DNA of 12,676 bases from Fibrobacterota bacterium (GTDB lineage: Bacteria > Fibrobacterota > Fibrobacteria > UBA11236), in contig JAYUVP010000005.1 of the NCBI GenBank assembly GCA_043753995.1, positions 1 to 12,676 of the forward strand, given 5' to 3'. Under the pieces are notes generated by a model. It ran no database searches. It saw only the letters and a list, made by a program, of their open reading frames with translations, and was not told where the DNA came from. Shown here piece after piece: positions 2,582-12,676 of this stretch; position 1 is the stretch's first letter; each line of letters starts with the position of its first letter. A program made the position numbers and the translations under genes.

Positions 2582-2617
2582 AAAAAAAACCAGCCGGCTC
2601 GAAACGAGCCGACTGGT
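2582..2617 (-). terminator. Rho-independent terminator of the small secreted-protein gene
   Basis: The minus strand reads ACCAGTCGGCTCG-TTT-CGAGCCGGCTGGT-TTTTTTT: a 13-bp stem with one U:G pair, then a U-run. It starts 14 nt after the TAA at 2632-2634. Confidence 0.9.
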
Positions 2618-2631
2618 ATTGACGAAATGGA

Positions 2632-2991
2632 TTAACGATCCATGCTCACGCCATAGGCGCGGCGGGTTTCTTGGCGCGAATTCACATCAGCAAGGGGAAA
2701 ATAGACATAGTTCGTATAGAGGTTGGTGTTGTTATTCGGGTGCTGCACAAGAATTTGCACCGTGAAATTCAACTGTTCGGCCAATTGCAGGGTGCTGTAC
2801 ATCTGCAATGCGCCGGGTTCGCTCAAGGGAAAGCTATAAACGGTGTTATCGGCAAGGCGAATTTGGCCCACGGGAGCATTTTGGCCTTGAATGGTTTGCA
2901 CTTGCAAAACCTTGCCCGAACGCCAGCCGGAAGAGGCCATGGCCATGGCCGAAAGTGCGAGAGTGGTGAGCGCCATTTTAATGAAATTCAT
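2632..2991 (-). CDS. Small secreted protein (119 aa), possible OB-fold resembling AB5-toxin B subunits
   Basis: Sec signal MNFIKMALTTLALSAMAMA/SS and a GGAG RBS 5 nt before the ATG. It has its own promoter and terminator. The mature pattern is GKV...IRLADNTVY...MYSTLQLAEQLNFTVQI. The CDS is well supported, but the fold call is tentative. Confidence 0.8.
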   Translation of the reverse strand: MNFIKMALTTLALSAMAMASSGWRSGKVLQVQTIQGQNAPVGQIRLADNTVYSFPLSEPGALQMYSTLQLAEQLNFTVQILVQHPNNNTNLYTNYVYFPLADVNSRQETRRAYGVSMDR

Positions 2992-3043
2992 ACGGACTCC
3001 GAAATTTTTAATTGCCGCGCAAATTGGCGGTAGACATCGTTAA

Positions 3044-3060
3044 TGCAATCGGCATGCCCA
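3044..3060 (-). promoter_or_regulatory. Sigma-54 (RpoN) -24/-12 promoter for the 2632-2991 gene
   Basis: Minus strand TGGGCATGCCGATTGCA versus consensus TGGCACG-N4-TTGCW. GG (3058-3057) and GC (3046-3045) are separated by exactly 10 nt. Predicted +1 is near 3033, about 40 nt before the ATG. Confidence 0.8.
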
Positions 3061-3073
3061 GATTTGACCCTGA

Positions 3074-3087
3074 TTTGAGGCCTCAAA
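3074..3087. promoter_or_regulatory. Perfect 14-bp palindrome between the sigma-54 promoter and the enhancer sites
   Basis: TTTGAGG-CCTCAAA. It overlaps a GATTTGA direct repeat (3061 and 3072, 11-bp period). Function unknown. Confidence 0.35.
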
Positions 3088-3104
3088 AAAGCCAAATGAG
3101 TCGA

Positions 3105-3145
3105 TTCTGTCGCAAGTCTGAGATTTCTGTCGCAAGCTTGCGATA
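3105..3145. promoter_or_regulatory. Tandem palindromic upstream activator sequences (candidate binding sites for the sigma-54 activator)
   Basis: TTCTGTCGCAAG is repeated exactly at 3105-3116 and 3125-3136 (20-bp period). Each copy begins a dyad: TGTCGCA-agtc-TGAGATT (3108-3125) and TGTCGCA-agct-TGCGATA (3128-3145, with perfect core TCGCAAGCTTGCGA). They lie at about -75 to -112 from the predicted sigma-54 start. Confidence 0.7.
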
Positions 3146-3278
3146 AAAGTCAAAGAAAAGTCATTTGCTAAGGAACCCTTGCCCTGCCCTTTCTACTTTT
3201 CTGAAACACCCTGCTAAAGCGATGAGAAACCTTTTTCCACGCTTATTTGCCGTTCGAGAATAACACCGGAGCTTGGAA

Positions 3279-4922
3279 GTGTTGACCCTGTCAGCGCGTT
3301 ACGAAATCATTCGTGAAATCGGCTCCGGGGCCAGCGCCGTCGTTTATTTGGCTCAGGACACTTTATTGCGGCGCCAGGTGGCTCTCAAAAAGCTTCATCC
3401 GCACTTGCTCGACCTAGAAGAATCGCAGCTTCGCTTCGAGAAAGAGGCCGTGGCGGTGGCCTCGCTTTCCCATGAAAATATTGTTCGACTGCACGATGTG
3501 ATCCAAGAAGAGCGTCGCTGGTCCCTGGCTTTGGAATTTATTTCCGGCCCTAGCCTTGAGGCCTTGATTGCCCAAGCGGGGGGAAGCCTGGGTCCGCTGG
3601 CGACGGTAGCCCTGGCCAGGCAGGCTTTGGAAGGCTTGTCCGAGGCCCATCGCAAAGGCGTCATTCACCGCGACATCAAGCCTTCGAATTTGCTGGTGAA
3701 TGAGGAGGGCGTAGTCAAGCTCACCGATTTCGGCATTGCTTTTTTAGCCGATGACGCCAGCGTGACGCGCACGGGATATATTCTCGGCACCCCGCAATTC
3801 ATGTCTCCTGAACAGGCCAGCGGAGAGGCGATCACGGATAAAGCCGATGTTTTTGCTCTCGGCGTGATTGTCTTTCGCTGCCTCTGCGGCCGATTTCCCG
3901 TGGCCGGACGCACGGCCAAAGAAATTTTCATCGCCATGGCTCATGGGCAGATCACGCCGATTCATGCGATACAACCTCGATTGATTCCAGGCATGGGCGA
4001 TTGGGTCATGCGACTTTTATCTGCCAAGCCTCTGTCTCGGCCCTCGGCCTTGGAAGCCCTCAACCAACTCAATCAATTGTTGTCACAAGTGAATTTACAG
4101 GCTGAGAAAAAGGACTTGGCGGCTTATCTCTCTGATGCCAAAGCGGCGAAGGCCGACGAAGAAGCTCGTCTTTCCAGGCATTTTCATGCCCTGGCGGTCT
4201 TGAAGCGGACGGCGGGCCAGGGTGCCATTGCCATTCGCTATGCGGGTTTGGCCCAACTCTTCGAGGTGACCCAGGCTATCGCTGGGTGGAAGGAATCAGT
4301 CGAGCCAGAGATTTGGAAAAAGCCCGAGCCCACCAAGACTTCGCGTCCTCTATTGGGGAGAGTTGCAATCTTAGGATCGGCAATCCTGGCCTTAGGGCTT
4401 TTTGCTGGGTGGCATACCAGCCGGTCGAAGATCGAGAGGGAAAGACATCCGTCGACTGCCAATGCCAGTTCCATCCTCTCCTCGAATCGCATGACGGTTC
4501 CACCTATTTCCATGGCCAATGTCTCGTATTCCCCCTCCCAAGCATTGCAGGAGATGCCTCCCAAGGGCTCCGGCGTAAATAGGGCGGCCAATACGGAAGA
4601 CGGAGAGCGGCCCGAACGCCAAACCCCGGCTTCGATTCAGCCCATCGAAGGTGTCGCAAATCACACCCAGGTCGAATCCCTGGAGCTCATTCCGGCCATA
4701 ATCCCTCCGGCCGCAGCGATGCGCATTCGCACTTTTCCCGCCTTCATGACGGTTTGGTTGGGGGATAGCCTCTGGGGGCAAACCCCGATTACGGCATGGC
4801 GAAATGCGAGTTTCGGAAACCACCGCTTAAGGCTGATCCGCGATGAAAAAACCTATCTCGATACCAACTTGTTTTTAAACCCAGGCGATTCACTCGATAT
4901 GAAATTGCGTTTGAGTCCATAA
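3279..4922 (+). CDS. Membrane Hanks-type Ser/Thr protein kinase with one TM helix and a C-terminal PEGA-like domain
   Basis: Intact motifs: IGSGASAVVY, VALK, FEKEA, HRDIKPSN, DFG, activation loop SVTRTGYILGTPQFMSPEQ, DVFALG. TM segment VAILGSAILALGLFAGW, then a Pro/Ser-rich linker and a PEGA-like tail IRTFP...VWLGDSLWGQTP...GNHRLRL. GTG 3279 is preferred over TTG 3273 because GGAG (3268-3271) is 7 nt upstream. Confidence 0.93.
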   Translation: MLTLSARYEIIREIGSGASAVVYLAQDTLLRRQVALKKLHPHLLDLEESQLRFEKEAVAVASLSHENIVRLHDVIQEERRWSLALEFISGPSLEALIAQAGGSLGPLATVALARQALEGLSEAHRKGVIHRDIKPSNLLVNEEGVVKLTDFGIAFLADDASVTRTGYILGTPQFMSPEQASGEAITDKADVFALGVIVFRCLCGRFPVAGRTAKEIFIAMAHGQITPIHAIQPRLIPGMGDWVMRLLSAKPLSRPSALEALNQLNQLLSQVNLQAEKKDLAAYLSDAKAAKADEEARLSRHFHALAVLKRTAGQGAIAIRYAGLAQLFEVTQAIAGWKESVEPEIWKKPEPTKTSRPLLGRVAILGSAILALGLFAGWHTSRSKIERERHPSTANASSILSSNRMTVPPISMANVSYSPSQALQEMPPKGSGVNRAANTEDGERPERQTPASIQPIEGVANHTQVESLELIPAIIPPAAAMRIRTFPAFMTVWLGDSLWGQTPITAWRNASFGNHRLRLIRDEKTYLDTNLFLNPGDSLDMKLRLSP

Positions 4923-4927
4923 GCAAT

Positions 4928-5641
4928 ATGCCCAATCTCTCCCATTCGCGCTCGCTTCGCGGGAATTTCACTGCGGCACGTGGCTTGCTTTTCTTTTTCC
5001 TCGCTATGACGGGACTCGCTTTTGCCAACCAAGATGCCGATACCCGGATTCACGATTGGTTGGGTTGGGGAGAATTCGACAGCGCCGTGGTCGCCCTGGA
5101 AAAGAGGGTGCAAGATTCCGGCTTATCCCAGAGCCTGGCCGCGACTCAGGCTAAATACTGGAGCTGGCTGGGCATCGCCTTTCATGGTCGCATGCAATCC
5201 CAGGCCGGTGATTCCGCTTTTCGCCGCACCTTGGCGATCAAGGCCGATTATGAGATCGAAGCGAATTTGGTGACCCGGGATTTGGCACGCCGCTTTCATG
5301 ATCTGGCGGAAAGCCAAAAGCAGGCTAACCAATTGCGCGATTCCGTTGTCCTCGCCAAATTGCGCGAGGCCGCCTTGATGCCAAGAACTATTGAGCTAAT
5401 AGACGAGCCAAAAGAAGACGCATTAGCCGAGCAAAAAAACGATCCAAAAGAAGAGCTGGAAAAAGAAGTCGCGCCAAAACCACGTCCATCGCGCAATACC
5501 GCCATTTGGTGGAAGTCGGCCGCGGGTGCCGGCGCAGCTGGAGTTTTGATTGCAGGGGGCATATTCGCTTATCTCACCTTGAATTCCACCTCAGAAAAAG
5601 CTCCCGCCGAGAAAATCTGGGATATTCCCTCACCGAAATAA
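4928..5641 (+). CDS. Exported TPR-like protein with a C-terminal hydrophobic anchor
   Basis: Starts 5 nt after the kinase stop. Signal peptide ...RGLLFFFLAMTGLAFA/NQD, TPR-like helices (YWSWLGIAFHG...GDSAFRRTLAIKADYEI), a charged linker, then WWKSAAGAGAAGVLIAGGIFAYLTL. Confidence 0.75.
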   Translation: MPNLSHSRSLRGNFTAARGLLFFFLAMTGLAFANQDADTRIHDWLGWGEFDSAVVALEKRVQDSGLSQSLAATQAKYWSWLGIAFHGRMQSQAGDSAFRRTLAIKADYEIEANLVTRDLARRFHDLAESQKQANQLRDSVVLAKLREAALMPRTIELIDEPKEDALAEQKNDPKEELEKEVAPKPRPSRNTAIWWKSAAGAGAAGVLIAGGIFAYLTLNSTSEKAPAEKIWDIPSPK

Positions 5642-5647
5642 AGCCAA

Positions 5648-8224
5648 ATGAAAAACGTGTCCGGTCCAATGCGCTTCGTTCTCGGCACGGGCTTGTTTTG
5701 CCTCTCAAGTCTTTTATTCCTCGCGGGCTGTTTAAATCAAGAGCCGGATATTGAAACCACCGCCCATTATTTGCGTTTGCATTTGCCTGACTCGTTGACG
5801 AAGAGCGACTCCATCCACATCGAAGTTCTCAATGCTAAGAATGACAGCTCAGTAGAACTCATTTTTCACGGTAAGCTCCTCGATAAAGCGCAATTGGAGA
5901 AAATCAAGGTTACCCATTATGATGGGGGCGAACTGAGATTGCGCGTGACCCAATTTAATGCCTTGTATACGGTAGTCATCATGGTTTATGACTATCAAGG
6001 CGATGGCGAAACCACGATCTTGAGTCATGTGATTATTCGCACCCTCCCACCTGCACGCGATTCGGTTCTGCCAACCATGACCTTGCGCGGAAAAAATACG
6101 GTGGAAAGCTATGTCGGTATTCCTTATGAAGACAGCGGGGCAGCCTGTCGCGACAAACAGGGCAATGCCTTCGAGGCCACCCTGTCGGGCTATGTCGATT
6201 CAAGGCAACTCGGCGTTTACACCCTGACCCTCCTATGTCGCACCTCCGATGGTTTGGTCTCGCTTCCCGCCAAACGAGTGATTCGCATTGTCCCCCTGCC
6301 CACCTCCCCGGACACCGTCGCGCCCAGCCTATCCCTGCTCGGCAAGGACATTATTCGTTTAGGCTTAGGGGAGCCCTATGTCGATAGTGGCGCGACCTGC
6401 GTCGACGATCGGGAAGGTTCGCTCTTGCCCCAATCCTCAGGCGTGGTGAAAATCACGCAGCCTGGCACCTATGTCGTCGAATATATCTGTCAAGACAAGG
6501 CCGGAAACTCGTCAGCGCGCTTGAAGCGTTATGTCGTGATTCAAAGCCCTATCCTTTCTGCCGATTCCCTGGCGCCATTATTGACGTTGAGAGGACGGGA
6601 TACTTTGGAATTGCTGAAAAAACAGACTTATCGTGATAGCGGCGCGATTTGCCTGGATGATCGAGATGGCCCCATCCCTGTGACCGGAGACGGCGTGGTG
6701 GACCCCGAAAATGTCGGCACCTATCGCCTTCGCTATGATTGCCAGGATAAGGCGGGTCATAAAGCCATCACCGTGATGCGGGTCATTTTTGTGCGCGATC
6801 CCGTCACTCCGCCAGACACCTTATCTCCGACCTTGGCGCTAAACGGTCGCGATACGGTCCTCTTGAGCTTATACCAAGCCTTTGCCGATCCGGGCGCCAC
6901 GTGCACCGACAATCGTGACGGCATTTTTGCGGCGCTCATTGAAGATCAAGTCAAAACCGGAAGCGCTGGAATTTTTACCGTCCACTACTTATGCCAGGAT
7001 CGAGCGGGCAATAGCGCCAATCGCGGCTTACGCATGGTCCAGGTTTTGGAGCCGGTCGATGCGACACCTCCTTTCACTTATTTGGTAGGCCGCGCGGATA
7101 CCACTATCATGCAAGGGAAGCCTTACAAGGACCCTGGGGCGCATTGCGAAGACAATCGCGACGGATCTTTCGAGCCCATCATACTCGGTAGCGTGGACGT
7201 CACTTCGATAGGTGTGCACACCTTAATTCTACGCTGTGAGGACAAAGCTGGAAATAGCAGCCAAGCCACTCGCAAAGTCACGGTAACCTTGGGCCCAGAT
7301 ACCCTGGCTCCCGTCATCACCATGCGTGGCCCGGAGACGGACAGTCTTCCGCTAGGGGGTTTATTCGTTGACGACGGCGCGACTTGCCAAGACGACCGGG
7401 ACGGTCGATTCGAGGCGCAGCATCTTGGTAAAATCGAGCCGGGAGTGATCGGACCCCATTCCTTGCGTTATCTCTGCCTGGATGGTGCCGGCAATCTTTC
7501 CGACACTTTAACTCGCGTCGTGAATGTCCTAGCGGTCACCGACACCCAGAAAACGGTGATTCTCAAGGTGACCAAGGATGCAGCCATGAATCTGAATAGC
7601 AGCCTATCGGATAATGGTTTTTCTCCCGTGCAGGGCTTCGTGCAGGCGGGCAGTGGTTTCGCATCGGTCCTGGCCTACGATTTCACGGGCATCAACCAAG
7701 CGACTATCAAGCGAGCGGTGATTCGTAGTCCGACCTTCATGTTTCCGCGAGCTTATTCTATTGGCGAACTGAATCTGGGCGTGCGCATTCGCGCTCTCAC
7801 CCAGAGTTGGGTGGAGGGGACGGGGAATTGGTATTGGCATGATGGAGGCTGGCGCAATAATGGCGCGACCTTGCTCAAATATTATGGGATGCCCGACAGC
7901 CTAAAGGCCCGCAGCACCAATCCTGCCATCAAGACGGGAATCAATAATATGGAAGCCGCCTATTTTAACGACGACAACTTGACCGCGGTCGCCACCACGA
8001 CACTCCAGGTGACCTATACCAATTCCGAATATTTCGTGGTGCCGCGACAAGAGGAAATGGTGCCTATCGAATTCGATATCACGGATTATATGAAAACCGC
8101 CGATCTCAGTGCCAACCAGGGTTTTTTCATTCAAGTGAATACTCCCACCGGCTATCAAGTCTGCATGCTGGCTCGGCAAATTGGCAGTGGCGATTACTCG
8201 CCTCAATTGATTATTGAATACTGA
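5648..8224 (+). CDS. Large lipoprotein with six DUF5011/HYR-like Ig repeats and a C-terminal DNRLRE/CBM96-like domain
   Basis: Lipobox LAGC (Cys28), starting 6 nt after the previous stop. Repeat consensus D..P.L.L.G...Y.D.GA.C.D.RDG...G.Y...Y.C.D.AGN...R.V.V. The C-terminal domain has VTKDA...VLAYDF...QSWVEGTG...FDITDYM...NQGFFI...PQLIIEY. Confidence 0.85.
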   Translation: MKNVSGPMRFVLGTGLFCLSSLLFLAGCLNQEPDIETTAHYLRLHLPDSLTKSDSIHIEVLNAKNDSSVELIFHGKLLDKAQLEKIKVTHYDGGELRLRVTQFNALYTVVIMVYDYQGDGETTILSHVIIRTLPPARDSVLPTMTLRGKNTVESYVGIPYEDSGAACRDKQGNAFEATLSGYVDSRQLGVYTLTLLCRTSDGLVSLPAKRVIRIVPLPTSPDTVAPSLSLLGKDIIRLGLGEPYVDSGATCVDDREGSLLPQSSGVVKITQPGTYVVEYICQDKAGNSSARLKRYVVIQSPILSADSLAPLLTLRGRDTLELLKKQTYRDSGAICLDDRDGPIPVTGDGVVDPENVGTYRLRYDCQDKAGHKAITVMRVIFVRDPVTPPDTLSPTLALNGRDTVLLSLYQAFADPGATCTDNRDGIFAALIEDQVKTGSAGIFTVHYLCQDRAGNSANRGLRMVQVLEPVDATPPFTYLVGRADTTIMQGKPYKDPGAHCEDNRDGSFEPIILGSVDVTSIGVHTLILRCEDKAGNSSQATRKVTVTLGPDTLAPVITMRGPETDSLPLGGLFVDDGATCQDDRDGRFEAQHLGKIEPGVIGPHSLRYLCLDGAGNLSDTLTRVVNVLAVTDTQKTVILKVTKDAAMNLNSSLSDNGFSPVQGFVQAGSGFASVLAYDFTGINQATIKRAVIRSPTFMFPRAYSIGELNLGVRIRALTQSWVEGTGNWYWHDGGWRNNGATLLKYYGMPDSLKARSTNPAIKTGINNMEAAYFNDDNLTAVATTTLQVTYTNSEYFVVPRQEEMVPIEFDITDYMKTADLSANQGFFIQVNTPTGYQVCMLARQIGSGDYSPQLIIEY
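6059..7531 (+). repeat. Six tandem Ig-like protein repeats of about 82 aa, diverged at DNA level
   Basis: Repeats begin DSVLP, DTVAP, DSLAP, DTLSP, DATPP and DTLAP (residues about 138-628). Each has exactly two Cys at equivalent positions. Confidence 0.9.
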
Positions 8225-8230
8225 GACTCC

Positions 8231-10021
8231 CTAATCGCCGCCTTTCGCCAACCGTCGAAACAAGGTGGCGCGGCTCACGCTTAATACTTGCGCCGCTTTA
8301 TCCTTGTCGCCCGAGCACAAGGACAAGGCCTTGGCTACATATTCGTTTTGAAAATTCGTGGTGGCTTCTTCTAGGCTGAGCCAACTCGTGGCAGGCGAGG
8401 GAAAGTCCAAAGTCACCAAGGCGCTACGGGACAAAATCGCGCCCTTGAGTACGGCGTTTTGCAATTCGCGCACATTGCCCGGCCAGCGATAGGCCAGCAT
8501 TTGCGACAAAGAATCGGGGTGAAAGTCGCTCAAGGTTTTGCTTGGGTTTTGGGCTTTCGCTTTTTCCAGGAAATGATAGGCCAGGAGAATCACGTCGGAG
8601 CCGCGCTCGCGCAAGGGCGGCAAGGTCAGGGTATGCTGAGCTATCCGGAAATAAAGGTCTTCGCGAAAAAGCCCTTTAGCCACGGCTTCGGACAAATCGC
8701 GATGGGTCGCGCAGAGAATGCGGGCATCGGCTTCTTCTTCGGTGACCTGGCCGAGCGGCCTCACCCTGCGGGTTTCGAGCACACGTAGAAGGCTGGCTTG
8801 CAGGGATAGGTCGAGCTCGCCGATTTCGTCGAGAAAAAGCGTGCCGCCATGCGCCGAAGCGAATAGACCGCGATGGTCGCGCACGGCTCCCGTAAAGGCC
8901 CCGCGTTTATAGCCGAACAATTCTCCCGCCAGCATTTCACCGCGCAAGGTCGAGCAATTGAGCGCCAAAAAAGGTTTGTTTCGGCGCAGGCTTTTGCGAT
9001 GCAGCAATTGCGCGAATAATTCCTTGCCTGATCCGGTCTCCCCTTGGATGAGCAGGTTCAGCTGCGAGGGTGCCAATAAGACGGCATCCTGGATGGCAGC
9101 GTGCAAAGCCGCACTATTGCCCAGCAAGCCCACTTCGCCGGCCTCCTCGTGGACGGCGCGTAGCAGGCGGCTTTGTTGATCGATGAAGGCGGCATGATGC
9201 ACCAAGGAACCCGCTAAAGTCGCGAAAAGGGAAAGCGTATCGCGATCTTCGGGAGTGAAGGCATGCACCGTGGAATTCGATCCGACATAAAACAGACCCA
9301 AAACCCGCCCCGCTACCTGGATGGGACAGCAAATCACCGATCGCAAGCGCAAAGACGAAATGCTTTCCGAGGCCGAAAAGAGAGGGTCCTCCAGGCCGCT
9401 GCTCAAAAGCAAGGGCTGCCCGCTTTTCAAGGTGGCTTGAACTATGGTGTCAGAGAAAAGCTTTCCGGTATCCCGTTCGCGCGTGCCCACTAGGACATCT
9501 GGGCGGCCCGTGGCGTCGATATTGAACACGAAGCCGTCCGAAGCTCCCAGCAATTTCACCAAGGCCTTCAATAGTCCATTTAACAAAGCCCGCAAGTCGG
9601 TTTCCGCCCCGAGCGAAACATGAAAATCCCGGAGCGCCGACAAAACGCGTTCGCTTTGTCCGTGGCCCGTGGACGTGGACACCTCGCGATAGGGTGGAGC
9701 CGATTTCGTTTCAACGACAATCATCGAGGGCTCTAAAACCCAGGTTTCCCCACTCAAGCAAAGTCGGTCGCCCGATCGCAAGCTGGCTTCCGCAACGCGC
9801 TGGCCATTGCATTCGAAAGTCCAGCCAGGCACAAGGCTTTCCGCATGCCAACCCTGGGTGCGCCAAGTGAATTGCAAGGCATAGGCCGGGGCCTCGGCGG
9901 GAAGCAGCCAATCATTGTCAGGGGCCGATCCTGCGACATGTACGGGACCGGTCAAGGAATAAAGTTCGGTACTTGTGGCAGCAAATCGGCGAAGCGACCA
10001 TGTCGCGGTAGGAAAAGACAT
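8231..10021 (-). CDS. Sigma-54-dependent enhancer-binding protein: degenerate FHA-like, GAF, AAA+ and Fis-type HTH domains
   Basis: Walker A GETGSGKE, ELFGYKRGAFTGA, Walker B LFLDEIGEL, FREDLYFRI, WPGNVRELQN, and HTH KAAQVLSVSRATLFRRL. GAF segment SESISSLRLRSVICCPI...VLGLFYV...FTPED. FHA-like N-terminus GSAPDND...NGQRVAEASLRSGDRL. No receiver domain. Start ATG 10021 is preferred, with TTG 10039 as the alternative. Confidence 0.93.
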   Translation of the reverse strand: MSFPTATWSLRRFAATSTELYSLTGPVHVAGSAPDNDWLLPAEAPAYALQFTWRTQGWHAESLVPGWTFECNGQRVAEASLRSGDRLCLSGETWVLEPSMIVVETKSAPPYREVSTSTGHGQSERVLSALRDFHVSLGAETDLRALLNGLLKALVKLLGASDGFVFNIDATGRPDVLVGTRERDTGKLFSDTIVQATLKSGQPLLLSSGLEDPLFSASESISSLRLRSVICCPIQVAGRVLGLFYVGSNSTVHAFTPEDRDTLSLFATLAGSLVHHAAFIDQQSRLLRAVHEEAGEVGLLGNSAALHAAIQDAVLLAPSQLNLLIQGETGSGKELFAQLLHRKSLRRNKPFLALNCSTLRGEMLAGELFGYKRGAFTGAVRDHRGLFASAHGGTLFLDEIGELDLSLQASLLRVLETRRVRPLGQVTEEEADARILCATHRDLSEAVAKGLFREDLYFRIAQHTLTLPPLRERGSDVILLAYHFLEKAKAQNPSKTLSDFHPDSLSQMLAYRWPGNVRELQNAVLKGAILSRSALVTLDFPSPATSWLSLEEATTNFQNEYVAKALSLCSGDKDKAAQVLSVSRATLFRRLAKGGD

Positions 10022-10028
10022 GCGGGGC

Positions 10029-10034
10029 AATATA
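10029..10034 (-). promoter_or_regulatory. Putative sigma-70 -10 element of a leaderless transcript for the activator gene
   Basis: The minus strand reads TATATT-gccccgc-ATG: the hexamer is 7 nt before ATG 10021 and there is no SD. A weak -35-like CTGCCA lies 16 nt further upstream. Confidence 0.5.
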
Positions 10035-10128
10035 CGCAAGTGGGGGACGCTGGCAGAGTAGGTTAATGTCTAGGCTGGCTGGCGATAGCCAGGAAAACAG
10101 AGCCGTCGAAAACTTATCGTGTGAGGGT

Positions 10129-10282: not shown

Positions 10283-11110
10283 ATGTCTGCCGCGCCCGAC
10301 GTGAACATCTTCAGTTATACAGATTTCCGGAAATTTCTAGAGGATTACTACCACACGCGCAAGCGGTCCGAGAAGAAATTCTCCCACCGCTTTATACAGG
10401 AAAAGGTCGGAGCCAGTTCGGCTGGATGGTTTGCCGACGTCACCAAAGGCCGGACCAACATTCCCGGCGGATTCATCATCAAACTGGCCAAGCTCCTCCA
10501 GCTCAAGTCCACGGAGACCGATTATTTCGAATCCATGGTCCTGTTCGGGCAATCTGCGTCCCTCGAAGAACGCACCCGCTACTTTCAGAAGATGGTGGCC
10601 TTCAAGGAGGTGCGCGCTGACATGGTGGGGATGGACCGCCTCGAGTTCTATTCGAAGTGGTACCACGGCGCCATACGCGAGTTGCTTTTCTTTCATCCCT
10701 TCCGCGGCGATTACGCCGATCTAGCGCGAAAGCTGAGCCCGCCCATCCGCCAGGCAGAGGCGCGCGATAGTGTGGCCCTGCTTGAACGTCTCGGGATGGT
10801 GGAGCCCAACAACATCGGCGGCTTCAAATCAAAGGAAGCCGTGCTCAAGCGTGATCCCACATTTCCTTCGGTGGTGATGGCCAACTTCCTGAAGAATAAC
10901 ATGGAGCTGGCGATCGAGGCGCTCGACCGCTATTCAAAGGAGGAGCGCGACGTGTCGGCCCTGACCGTGTCGCTCTCCGAGAAGGCATTCTTGCAGGTGA
11001 AGGAAGATATCCGCGCAATGCGAAAAAAGATCCTGGCAATGACCGAGATCGACCTGGCACCCTCGAAGGTCTACCAGTGCAATTTTCAATTCTTTCCGCT
11101 GTCCCTCTGA
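10283..11110 (+). CDS. TIGR02147 family protein (DUF4423; N-terminal HTH-like domain)
   Basis: Family hallmarks: IFSYTDFRKFLEDYY...FSHRFIQEKVG.SSAGW..DV.KG, FYSKWYHGAIRELL, LLERLGMV, EERDVSALTVSLS, and the terminal VYQCNFQFFPLS. Length 275 aa. Confidence 0.92.
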   Translation: MSAAPDVNIFSYTDFRKFLEDYYHTRKRSEKKFSHRFIQEKVGASSAGWFADVTKGRTNIPGGFIIKLAKLLQLKSTETDYFESMVLFGQSASLEERTRYFQKMVAFKEVRADMVGMDRLEFYSKWYHGAIRELLFFHPFRGDYADLARKLSPPIRQAEARDSVALLERLGMVEPNNIGGFKSKEAVLKRDPTFPSVVMANFLKNNMELAIEALDRYSKEERDVSALTVSLSEKAFLQVKEDIRAMRKKILAMTEIDLAPSKVYQCNFQFFPLSL

Positions 11111-11111
11111 G

Positions 11112-12676
11112 ATGAAGATCCCCACCCCGGTCGCGATGTTTGCGGCACTAATCGTGATGCAGTTCATCGGGTGCATTCTCGACGGACGTCATGCGGGCCG
11201 TGGTTCAGAAGTGGAGAACGAACTGAGCGTGTACGGCGTGCTTGTCGATGAAAGGGGCAAACCCATATCAGGCGCGACGGTTATGGCGAATCCCTCAGCC
11301 GTGGGTGTGGGCAAGCGCGCGCGTGCGTCTGCGGACGACGCGTACGATTCGGTCGTCACCGATGGGAAGGGCCGGTATGACTTCGGAAAATTGCGGGTAG
11401 GCGCGTACGATTTCTTCGGGTCCGCGTCAGCGGGCGATCTTGTTGTACTCATCCCCTCGGTGGAGGTCCTTGATCCGTCCCTGCCCATGAATGTCGGGAC
11501 CGATACTTTGCGGGCTCCGGGCCGTATCCGCGGTCGTGTGCTGGTGGGTACCTCCGGCAAGCCTGCGGTCCTCTGTTACGTGCCAGGCACCTCGTTCCTG
11601 GCGGCTACGGATGATTCCGGCCGTTTCGAACTCAGCGGTATCCCCCAAGGGAGGTACCGCTTAAGTTACTCAACGCCGGGATTTCTGATCGTCTCGGATA
11701 CGGGAGTGGCTGTGCGCGCAGGTGAAACCTCCATGCTGTCCGATAAATACCTGGCTTACGATCCAGCCTTACCCCCTCCGCCGCCGGTGGAAGTACGCGC
11801 GTCCTACGATACGTTGAGGGAGAGCGTCAGCCTCATGTGGGACAGGATACCCGTGTCGGATCTGGATGGCTACGTGGTATATCGCGATGATCCGTCCTTC
11901 CTGGATCCGAAACCGATCGTGGACGGTTTTACGGAAGGGGAGGCATTTATCGATTCCACACTCAATAACTTGCTGCCTGGGGAAACCCGGAATCTCGTCT
12001 ATCGGATCAAGGCTCGCGACCGTGAAGCCAATCTTAGCGTCAGCTATTCAACCCCCACCTATGTCGTGGCGGTTTCCAGATCGTACGTCTCCACAACACT
12101 GTTCTCCCGGACACCTGATGCGCGGAACGGGGTAGTTAGCATCGGGGATTCCGCACGGATTGTTCTGGAGTACGCGAATCCGACCCGGCCCATCGTGGAG
12201 ATAGAGTGGCACATACAAGGCCAGGACGTGATCCTCCGGTCGGCCACTGTATCCGTTCTGAGAGGCACGGATACCCTACGATGGAAAGCCGCTGGGGCGG
12301 GGTCGGTAGTATTCAAGGCAAGGGCGCGCGACGAGGCTGGGATGGACTGGACGGACAGCCTCTCCCTTACCGTTGTCTCAGATCGACCGAGCGCCTGGGC
12401 GGGCCAGGATACGATCGTGACTTTGGGAGATAGAGTCTATCTGCACGGGTCCGGCGGCGACGGATACGGATCGATTCGGCTTTGGGAATGGGATATCGGC
12501 GGCAAGGGAATATTCCGTTCCGGATCGCCGGACACTGCTTTTTCCGCGCTAACCTCCGGTCCCCGGCAATACCCCTGCATCCTGCGCGTTACCGATGACG
12601 ACGGCATGATGGATACCGATACCATTATTGTAAACATCATCACGGATCCCCCTAAGGCCTTGGCTGGCAACGATAC
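11112..12676 (+). CDS. Large lipoprotein (two carboxypeptidase-regulatory-like/CnaB beta-sandwiches, FN3, Ig-like and PKD repeats), 3'-truncated by the window edge; not in the ORF track
   Basis: ATG is 1 nt after the TIGR02147 TGA, and hand translation is open to the window end (over 520 codons). Sequence: MKIPTPVAMFAALIVMQFIGC (lipobox FIGC), HAGRGSEVEN, GVLVDERGKPISGATV...TDGKGRYDF, YVPGTSFLAATDDSGRFELSGIPQGRY, LMWD..PVSDLDGYVVYR...YRIKARD (FN3), PSAWAGQD...WEWDIGG...LRVTDDDG (PKD). A second PKD repeat begins at DPPKALAGND. Confidence 0.88.
   Translation, partial: MKIPTPVAMFAALIVMQFIGCILDGRHAGRGSEVENELSVYGVLVDERGKPISGATVMANPSAVGVGKRARASADDAYDSVVTDGKGRYDFGKLRVGAYDFFGSASAGDLVVLIPSVEVLDPSLPMNVGTDTLRAPGRIRGRVLVGTSGKPAVLCYVPGTSFLAATDDSGRFELSGIPQGRYRLSYSTPGFLIVSDTGVAVRAGETSMLSDKYLAYDPALPPPPPVEVRASYDTLRESVSLMWDRIPVSDLDGYVVYRDDPSFLDPKPIVDGFTEGEAFIDSTLNNLLPGETRNLVYRIKARDREANLSVSYSTPTYVVAVSRSYVSTTLFSRTPDARNGVVSIGDSARIVLEYANPTRPIVEIEWHIQGQDVILRSATVSVLRGTDTLRWKAAGAGSVVFKARARDEAGMDWTDSLSLTVVSDRPSAWAGQDTIVTLGDRVYLHGSGGDGYGSIRLWEWDIGGKGIFRSGSPDTAFSALTSGPRQYPCILRVTDDDGMMDTDTIIVNIITDPPKALAGND

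Follow-up and report, generated by a model that had tools for sequence, protein, structure and literature searches.

Can a signal at the cell surface reach a sigma-54 promoter through a eukaryote-like Ser/Thr kinase? This question is raised by a 12,676-nt stretch of DNA from a Fibrobacterota bacterium (assembly GCA_043753995.1, contig JAYUVP010000005.1), hereafter the window, which is the entire contig C5 of a 5.2-Mb genome (G000). In the window, genes for a kinase (3273-4922, forward strand), an adaptor, which is a TPR-like protein (4928-5641, forward), and a lipoprotein (5648-8224, forward) meet the gene of a sigma-54 activator head-on (8231-10021, reverse strand, from an ATG start; the longest open reading frame (ORF) begins with a TTG at 10039). 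A target gene for a 119-amino-acid (aa) secreted protein lies on the other side of the kinase (2632-2991, reverse). The gaps between kinase and adaptor, adaptor and lipoprotein, and lipoprotein and activator are 5, 6, and 6 nt, in agreement with a first-pass annotation of this DNA, which had described a tightly packed kinase-TPR-lipoprotein operon with a convergent activator. In the mechanism that we propose, the lipoprotein, with its glycan-binding-like tip, would pick up a signal at the cell surface, the TPR adaptor would hand it to the periplasmic PEGA domain of the kinase, the kinase would switch on the sigma-54 activator, and the activator would bind tandem dyads and drive the adjacent secreted-protein gene. 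We give this whole trans-envelope relay, from lipoprotein to target, a probability of roughly 55%; its transcriptional half is well supported, and its trans-envelope half is plausible and weakly tested.

The synteny indicates that the four genes almost certainly form one conserved system. The activator search was inspected for the 11 best matches among 40 relatives; the window layout is complete in two of these loci (L016 and L017), in two more (L018 and L020) a contig end truncates it, L019 and L021 are rearranged, L022 has no lipoprotein, and L023-L026 are short contigs. The adaptor profile matches 70 of the 296 genomes of the phylum. From other classes we sampled the 20 best-scoring genomes, picked by the adaptor alone; a PEGA kinase or its end was present at 20/20 of their loci, a lipoprotein (~340 aa) at 18/20, and an activator at 17/20, with all three loci without an activator at contig ends. 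At least four gene orders occur among them, including kinase-activator-adaptor-lipoprotein, kinase-adaptor-lipoprotein-activator, and kinase-adaptor-activator-lipoprotein; the convergent activator is a local trait of the window's family. Co-location across the phylum, with a core that is kept and a lipoprotein tip and target gene that vary, is the pattern for which the first-pass annotation had suggested a synteny search. The profile of the activator N-terminal domain matches 74 of the 296 genomes, many of them weakly via other FHA proteins; the largest family, with 151 genomes, is without a match. More distant blocks of kinase, TPR protein, and activator are found in L092 and L095-L098. A pattern scan of the genome collection with the activator returned only one unrelated Myxococcota locus, the one Myxococcota genome searched gave only weak generic TPR matches, and a shallow protein database search with the adaptor alignment gave 4 matches. 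L017 (genome G021) comes from unpublished data; it is among the two complete same-order examples and the eight window-type adaptors, and it contributes one held-out promoter and one alignment row. No conclusion depends on it alone.

What links the activator to the 119-aa gene is the DNA between that gene and the kinase. It holds a sigma-54 (-24/-12) promoter of the form GG-N10-GC (3044-3060, reverse) and two tandem 16-bp dyads with a 20-bp period (3109-3124 and 3129-3144), which are likely activator binding sites. The target gene is monocistronic, encodes a signal peptide, and ends in an intrinsic terminator (2589-2617, reverse) with a 13-bp stem and a U tract (z -6.4; 0/200 shuffles fold as well). 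All of these elements had been claimed from a first look at the DNA and were located here, and the dyads are not due to chance. The genome itself encodes an RpoN-box protein on contig C210. Our sigma-54 matrix is approximate, drawn from a consensus, and a sigma-54-like site alone is common, with 897 sites scoring at least 11 in 10.4 million positions. Before secreted-protein genes near cassettes, there were 30 such sites in 67 kb of intergenic DNA, versus 5 in 25 kb of control. A sigma-70 scan stayed at chance level (10 found, 7.2 expected), and NifA-/NtrC-type sites (TGT-N10-ACA) were tried and had no match upstream of the targets.

The dyads belong to a family with the consensus GTCTCA-N4-TGAGAC, found in tandem with a period of 20-22 bp upstream of sigma-54-like sites. 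With a dyad matrix trained on 12 promoters at 11 loci from other classes only, the window's pair was the top tandem of the 5.2-Mb genome, with a score of 27.0 that was reached by 0/200 local shuffles. The distance from the promoter element to the start of the distal dyad is 84 nt, within the 84-88 nt seen for 9 of the 12 training sites. Eleven tandems in the genome score at least 15; the best five are near a sigma-54-like site (scoring at least 11), and the next six are without one. Among held-out promoters, 11/12 lie at a tandem score matched by at most 1/200 shuffles, two of them on C313 sharing one site. At held-out cassette loci, 12 tandems were found in 9/24 loci (252 kb), compared with 0 in 24 control loci (359 kb). 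Tandem and promoter also recur in four of 16 additional loci (L085, L088, L090, and L093), and L086, L087, L089, and L091 have an orthologous activator with no tandem and promoter in their available DNA. The proposed link from activator through dyads to promoter is thus borne out comparatively, with dyads and sigma-54 site as a conserved target signature of the activator family. Given the first rank of the window's dyads and their agreement with the training spacing, the 119-aa gene is very likely driven by the activator, and the strong comparative evidence makes it highly probable that this would happen by way of the dyads and the -24/-12 site. The site at L062:13767, considered as another target, was rejected as a sigma-54-like site without dyads, its score being reached by 150/200 shuffles.

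Further dyad and promoter sites are found elsewhere in the genome, on C62, C356, C149, C337, C313, C68, and C157, which means that the regulon extends beyond one gene; the paralogous activators probably share it. The genome has three cassettes, on C5, on C313 and C321, and probably on C177 and C337, of which the latter two are each split at a contig break. Given three cassettes, shared promoters, and about 21 adaptor genes with no kinase nearby, the module is not self-contained, as the first-pass annotation had called it. At L053:8295, C356:3589, and C62:5881, dyads and a sigma-54 site were observed with no clear secreted-protein gene downstream; their target may have been lost, they may serve a small RNA, or the enhancer may be used divergently. 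Two genomes of the same genus have a short HisKA-like ORF behind a dyad-controlled promoter (L021:9217 and L023:2806), through which the output may feed into two-component signalling.

The activator itself has the features of a sigma-54 enhancer-binding protein. Its parts, all on the reverse strand, are a degenerate FHA fold (~9722-10003), a GAF domain, an AAA+ domain with the GAFTGA motif (8885-8902), and a C-terminal Fis-type helix-turn-helix; Pfam gives PF00158 (Sigma54_activat, E 2e-60), PF02954 (HTH_8), and GAF, Walker A and B were located together with GAFTGA, and the structural matches are NtrC1, PspF, and DmpR. No receiver domain was found in the Pfam scan. The N-terminal domain profile, built from 20 orthologues, matches the FHA structures of Rv1747, GarA, and EmbR (E 1e-8 to 5e-7), its model is all-beta, and PF16697 is above cut-off in 3/3 homologues. 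The FHA motif GR is present in only 2/20 orthologues and SxxH in 0/20, and the first NG of solved FHA domains aligns to a gap or to a residue other than Asn. According to the accessible text of PMC3162421, GR and SxxH, with NG, are crucial for phosphothreonine binding, and FHA folds that work without these motifs are described. Since GR is mostly and SxxH always absent, the domain cannot be a canonical phospho-reader, and the usual kinase-to-FHA route is unavailable. The earlier description of a receiver-less FHA-like/GAF sigma-54 activator therefore holds for the fold, the GAF domain, GAFTGA, and the absence of a receiver, and falls short at the phosphothreonine residues, which are missing.

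How, then, might the kinase reach the activator? The kinase has intact Gly loop, VALK, HRD, and DFG motifs (Pfam Pkinase E 6e-47) and consists of a catalytic domain, a helical segment (aa 273-334), a transmembrane helix (~aa 364-382), a low-complexity linker of ~95 aa, and a C-terminal PEGA domain (4704-4919, forward). The PEGA match is weak in the window (E 0.009) and above the Pfam cut-off in 4/4 homologous kinases scanned, so that a transmembrane kinase with a PEGA-like tail, as first described, is what we find; catalytic motifs, one transmembrane helix, and an extracytoplasmic domain are the features of a Hanks-type membrane Ser/Thr kinase. When a profile of the helical segment is made from kinases of other classes only, it places the three cassette kinases of the genome first among 19,557 ORFs (E 0.002-0.05) and misses the two free PEGA kinases. 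We propose that this cassette-specific segment before the transmembrane helix is a docking site for the activator. The kinase probably controls the activator directly, by docking through the helical juxtamembrane segment and by phosphorylation outside the canonical FHA pocket. The sign of this control could also be reversed, with the kinase using the degenerate FHA domain to keep the activator at the membrane in an inactive state, or inhibiting it by phosphorylation, until the signal releases it. PspA restrains PspF in this manner, and the loss of the phosphate pocket from an FHA domain that keeps a conserved fold and its own invariant residues would suit such a tether, as would the docking-like segment of the kinase. 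We give this version little credence, as the retained catalytic motifs and activation-loop threonines fit activation after dimerisation, as in PpkA, without fixing the sign. The two PEGA kinases without the cassette helical segment are encoded at C175:3801-5507 and C229:12542-14476 and are candidate partners of the adaptors that have no kinase nearby.

On the periplasmic side, the proposed partner of PEGA is the adaptor, which is made up of a signal peptide, a short TPR domain with an invariant Trp in a W-G/A-E-Y/F motif, a linker, a weakly hydrophobic, Gly/Ala-rich helix (~5507-5581, forward), and a short C-terminal tail. Its profile matches TPR structures. The invariant Trp marks the kinase-linked adaptors, and a second adaptor group lacks it and has no kinase nearby. 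At 33/33 fetched loci with a Trp-motif TPR and a PEGA domain, the two are no more than 3.5 kb apart; one additional Trp-motif TPR locus runs out at a contig edge. A complex model of PEGA and TPR scored 0.34, compared with 0.00 for the best control, with contacts agreeing in at least 96% and a partner predicted local distance difference test (pLDDT) value of 87. The mark used for such models was reached by 116/157 solved pairs and 2/215 mismatched pairs, and at values of 0.60 or below by only 18 solved pairs together with both mismatches. Recall of a solved complex by the model is unlikely, because the PEGA profile matches a single PDB chain, and weakly. The relay from TPR to PEGA that had been proposed for this locus thus gains weak model support for the contact; taken with the co-inheritance, it makes binding of PEGA by the TPR domain fairly likely.

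The other end of the adaptor seems to belong with the lipoprotein. The kinase-less adaptors of this genome (for example on C7, C58, C61, C90, C94, C98, C127, C139, C153, C159, C178, C243, C249, C302, C304, C310, and C326) also have a signal peptide, a TPR domain, a Gly-rich helix, and a short tail, and their genes are mostly found just 5' of a gene for an 800-1600-aa lipoprotein. A tree places the kinase-less TPRs (20 rows) in a separate clade with bootstrap 100. In window-type adaptors, the TPR half scores higher on the kinase-linked than on the kinase-less profile in 8/8 cases, and the C-terminal end, a single helix plus tail, scores higher on the kinase-less profile in 7/8. The type of helix and tail co-varies with the type of lipoprotein, and the N-terminal domain of window-type lipoproteins is the one common to the partners of kinase-less adaptors, not the family used in other cassettes. 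From this natural domain swap, we infer that the adaptor turns its TPR half towards the kinase and its C-terminal half towards the lipoprotein. Engagement of the lipoprotein N-terminal domain by the adaptor's C-terminal helix and tail is, on the same evidence, somewhat favoured.

The lipoprotein begins with a lipobox (Cys28) and an acidic +1 to +6 stretch, followed by an N-terminal domain, six PF16403 Ig repeats, and a DNRLRE/CBM96-like C-terminal tip (7541-8221, forward); three scanned window-type lipoproteins have 6, 9, and 11 Ig repeats. At the sequence level the tip matches NF033679 with E 2e-4, at 21 bits against a cut-off of 34, and its profile finds PDB entries only at E 0.15. The tip model was closest to 7VBO (CBM96; Z 12.8, root-mean-square deviation (rmsd) 3.6 over 165 residues, Foldseek E 1e-5) and to 8WAB, a chondroitin-sulfate-binding module (Z 12.7, rmsd 3.3, 164 residues), with TGF-beta prodomains as the next fold matches (Z 10.9). 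The modelled tip therefore resembles modules that bind anionic glycans (alginate, chondroitin sulfate). It differs from the CBM96/DNRLRE domain, as presented in the accessible text of PMC9971899, and from 8WAB in that identity is only 11-20%, an insertion of ~50 residues is poorly modelled, and the tip is not attached to a lyase. Going by the fold, the ligand may be an extracellular, probably anionic, polysaccharide, which we suggest tentatively.

The output of the module is likely to consist of surface lectins, adhesins, and scaffold proteins. The 119-aa protein has no Pfam or PDB sequence match, and a shallow database search (2 matches) returned one close relative. It has an Atlas feature score of 0.88 to PF02918 clusters, with 176/256 features shared, and as a lead only, it is possibly an OB-fold lectin like the B subunits of AB5 toxins; no AB5 A-subunit gene was recognised in the window. 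A distant look-alike (17% identity) is encoded behind the sigma-54 site of the paralogous C313 cassette. In other classes, the usual target is a secreted protein with LamG, cohesin, and dockerin domains and a C-terminal domain (CTD) (7 loci scanned, and also C313), and VIT or VIT/VWA proteins and lipoproteins of the tectonin and astacin-tectonin kinds are targets as well. A single chain that carries both cohesin and dockerin, with one to three LamG domains and a CTD-like end, was observed at L045:5387-8197, L048, L049, L051, L054, L055, L058, L062, and L037:2870-5110; such a protein could polymerise with itself into a lectin-bearing surface lattice.

The module can be set against known signalling systems. 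FecA/FecR/FecI allows an outside ligand to induce adjacent genes across both membranes, and the locus had been suggested to be its kinase/sigma-54 counterpart. As no TonB-dependent transporter, FecR anti-sigma factor, or extracytoplasmic function (ECF) sigma factor was found in the window or in the scanned cassette proteins, this is only a loose analogy; cross-envelope induction of adjacent genes is the shared idea, and regulated proteolysis is not part of the module. Two other systems are closer models, and the module belongs to neither. In QseG-QseE-QseF (GlrK/GlrR) of Escherichia coli, as described in the accessible text of PMC6075780, a lipoprotein encoded in the operon acts from the periplasm to activate the membrane kinase QseE; QseE in turn controls QseF, which binds upstream activating sequences and activates sigma-54 promoters. 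The module shares this lipoprotein-kinase-sigma-54 activator logic. However, QseE belongs to the histidine kinases and QseF contains a receiver, whereas the module has a Hanks-type PEGA kinase, an activator with a degenerate FHA domain and a GAF domain, a separate TPR adaptor, and a stalked lipoprotein with a glycan-module tip; HisKA, HATPase, and receiver domains had no match in any of the four module proteins. TagQ-TagR-PpkA-Fha1 of the Pseudomonas aeruginosa H1 type VI secretion system (T6SS) likewise combines a lipoprotein, an exported adaptor, a membrane Ser/Thr kinase, and an FHA-fold substrate, according to the accessible text of PMC13713981, but its output is post-translational T6SS assembly, not transcription, and in the module the FHA pocket is lost. 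Pfam and PDB searches gave no TagQ or TagR homology for the lipoprotein or the adaptor, which has a TPR fold, and no T6SS families were found among the window's 9 scanned proteins.

Following the QseG or TagQ/TagR pattern, the lipoprotein would face the periplasm, the adaptor would be an inner-membrane or periplasmic partner, and the signal would be envelope damage, lipoprotein mislocalisation, or a periplasmic glycan, with the downstream chain unchanged. Both known lipoprotein-to-kinase systems work in this way in the parts of PMC6075780 and PMC13713981 that were accessible, the commonest cassette lipoprotein in the phylum is short (~340 aa) with no long stalk, and the targets are envelope and surface proteins. 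Sensing of the envelope state is nevertheless unlikely in our view, given the long Ig stalks and glycan-module tip of window-type lipoproteins, the enrichment of acidic stretches after the Cys, and a poor fit of the adaptor helix to the inner membrane. A net negative +1 to +6 stretch was found in 30/37 paired lipoproteins, versus 42/110 crudely predicted lipoproteins genome-wide, and net negative charge after the Cys defines the export signal for Bacteroidota in the accessible text of 10.64898/2026.10.03.756453. On an approximate insertion scale, the adaptor helix was unfavourable for the inner membrane in 21/21 kinase-less and 8/8 window-type adaptors, compared with 5/30 kinase helices, and in 16/21 and 7/8, respectively, the flank towards the exported TPR domain is the more positive one. 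Helix scores and flank charge together argue against an ordinary inner-membrane anchor and allow an outer-membrane helix. A sorting signal of the GlyGly-CTERM or PEP-CTERM type at the adaptor C-terminal end was rejected, the basic residues preceding the helix and not following it.

In a more specific form of the relay, which we regard as doubtful, the adaptor would be an alpha-helical transducer spanning the outer membrane; its Gly/Ala-rich helix would cross that membrane, its short outer tail would join the N-terminal domain of the surface lipoprotein as an extra beta-strand, and its periplasmic TPR would grip PEGA at the end of the kinase's long linker. If so, the locus would encode a surface receptor of two chains that signals to a eukaryote-like kinase and sigma-54 without a beta-barrel transporter, and the 20-odd kinase-less pairs would be a repertoire of interchangeable receptor ectodomains.

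Several observations, besides the lost FHA motifs, weigh against the relay from surface lipoprotein to target gene. Fifteen of the 24 held-out cassette loci have no tandem, some of them on long contigs (L018, L060, and L065). Kinase, adaptor, and activator are present with no adjacent lipoprotein in L022 and L053, so the lipoprotein may be an input and not an obligatory part. The swap signal at the adaptor's C-terminal end is weak for the window (8.3 vs 1.8 bits), negligible for L022, and reversed for C313. The tip model is moderate, with a mean pLDDT of 65 and 72 residues below 50, and a fold alone shows no ligand. Related genomes are not independent samples, so the counts overstate significance. 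Finally, at least 17 of the ~21 kinase-less adaptor genes of this genome are directly followed by a lipoprotein gene; with so many adaptor genes away from a kinase, the adaptor-lipoprotein pair has its own role. That role could be to sort or anchor a large surface lipoprotein, the pair merely riding along in the cassettes, with kinase and activator as a signalling pair that reads another periplasmic cue through PEGA. Kinase-less loci make up 15/20 of the adaptor loci among same-family or same-order loci, and two cassettes have no lipoprotein, as this would predict. We nevertheless hold such passive sorting to be improbable, because the adaptors linked to a kinase form a sequence group of their own, marked by the invariant Trp, and remain beside the kinase despite changes in gene order and replacement of their C-terminal half and lipoprotein, and because the PEGA-TPR contact has weak model support. 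The relay through the adaptor remains our preferred reading.

The module is real, conserved, and apparently undescribed. Jelsbak, Givskov, and Kaiser reportedly described receiver-less FHA sigma-54 enhancer-binding proteins in Myxococcus xanthus in 2005 and proposed a link to Ser/Thr kinases. Compared with those activators, the module lacks the phosphothreonine motifs, and its kinase, adaptor, lipoprotein, motif, and targets can be read from synteny. No worked-out pathway from a Ser/Thr kinase through FHA to a sigma-54 activator was found in the literature searched, nor was a description of the four-gene module, the dyad motif, or the adaptor-lipoprotein pairs, in a search that covered subscription papers thinly and excluded supplements; the accessible text of PMC6213207, PMC7159879, and PMC2875238 contains no description of the module. 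The locus offers a kinase, an activator, a binding motif, a promoter, and a target for testing the kinase-sigma-54 link. If surface sensing is true, it would be an outer-membrane signalling route with neither a TonB-dependent transporter nor a histidine kinase, in free-living bacteria related to major polysaccharide degraders. Apart from the relay, the recurring adaptor-lipoprotein pairs make up a large gene family that is still uncharacterised.

Other genes of the window and its genome were also noted. The window's DNA was found in two sediment metagenome runs of one study, and no RNA data sets were listed as carrying it. Membership of Fibrobacterota is indicated by the 30 TIGR02147-like paralogues in the genome and by the top Atlas cluster for the adaptor. 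Behind the target's terminator, and with no dyads of its own, lies a gene for a 542-aa secreted protein with a tectonin-like N-terminal half (650-2278, reverse); it is homologous to sigma-54 targets in L019 (24% identity over 234 aa, E 6e-6) and is possibly a displaced former target. Its C-terminal half has no PDB sequence match, and a 32%-identical homologue of that half was observed at C133:7346-8173 among small ORFs, which give the impression, and only that, of being virus-like. The first 631 nt of the window are the end of a nucleotidyltransferase (MurU-like) gene, and L017, L019, and L065 also have a gene of this kind next to the cassette region. A second family pairing a kinase with an FHA/GAF sigma-54 activator, with a TPR lipoprotein and without these dyads, was observed at C208:10278-16669, L028-L035, L094, and L099 and is conserved in many relatives. 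At the other end of the window (10283-12676), a TIGR02147-family gene stands directly before one for a lipoprotein-like product that carries carboxypeptidase-regulatory-like and PKD domains. BLAST finds 30 relatives of the former and 20 of the latter in the genome, often adjacent, and on this sequence evidence the pair is another repeated two-gene module.

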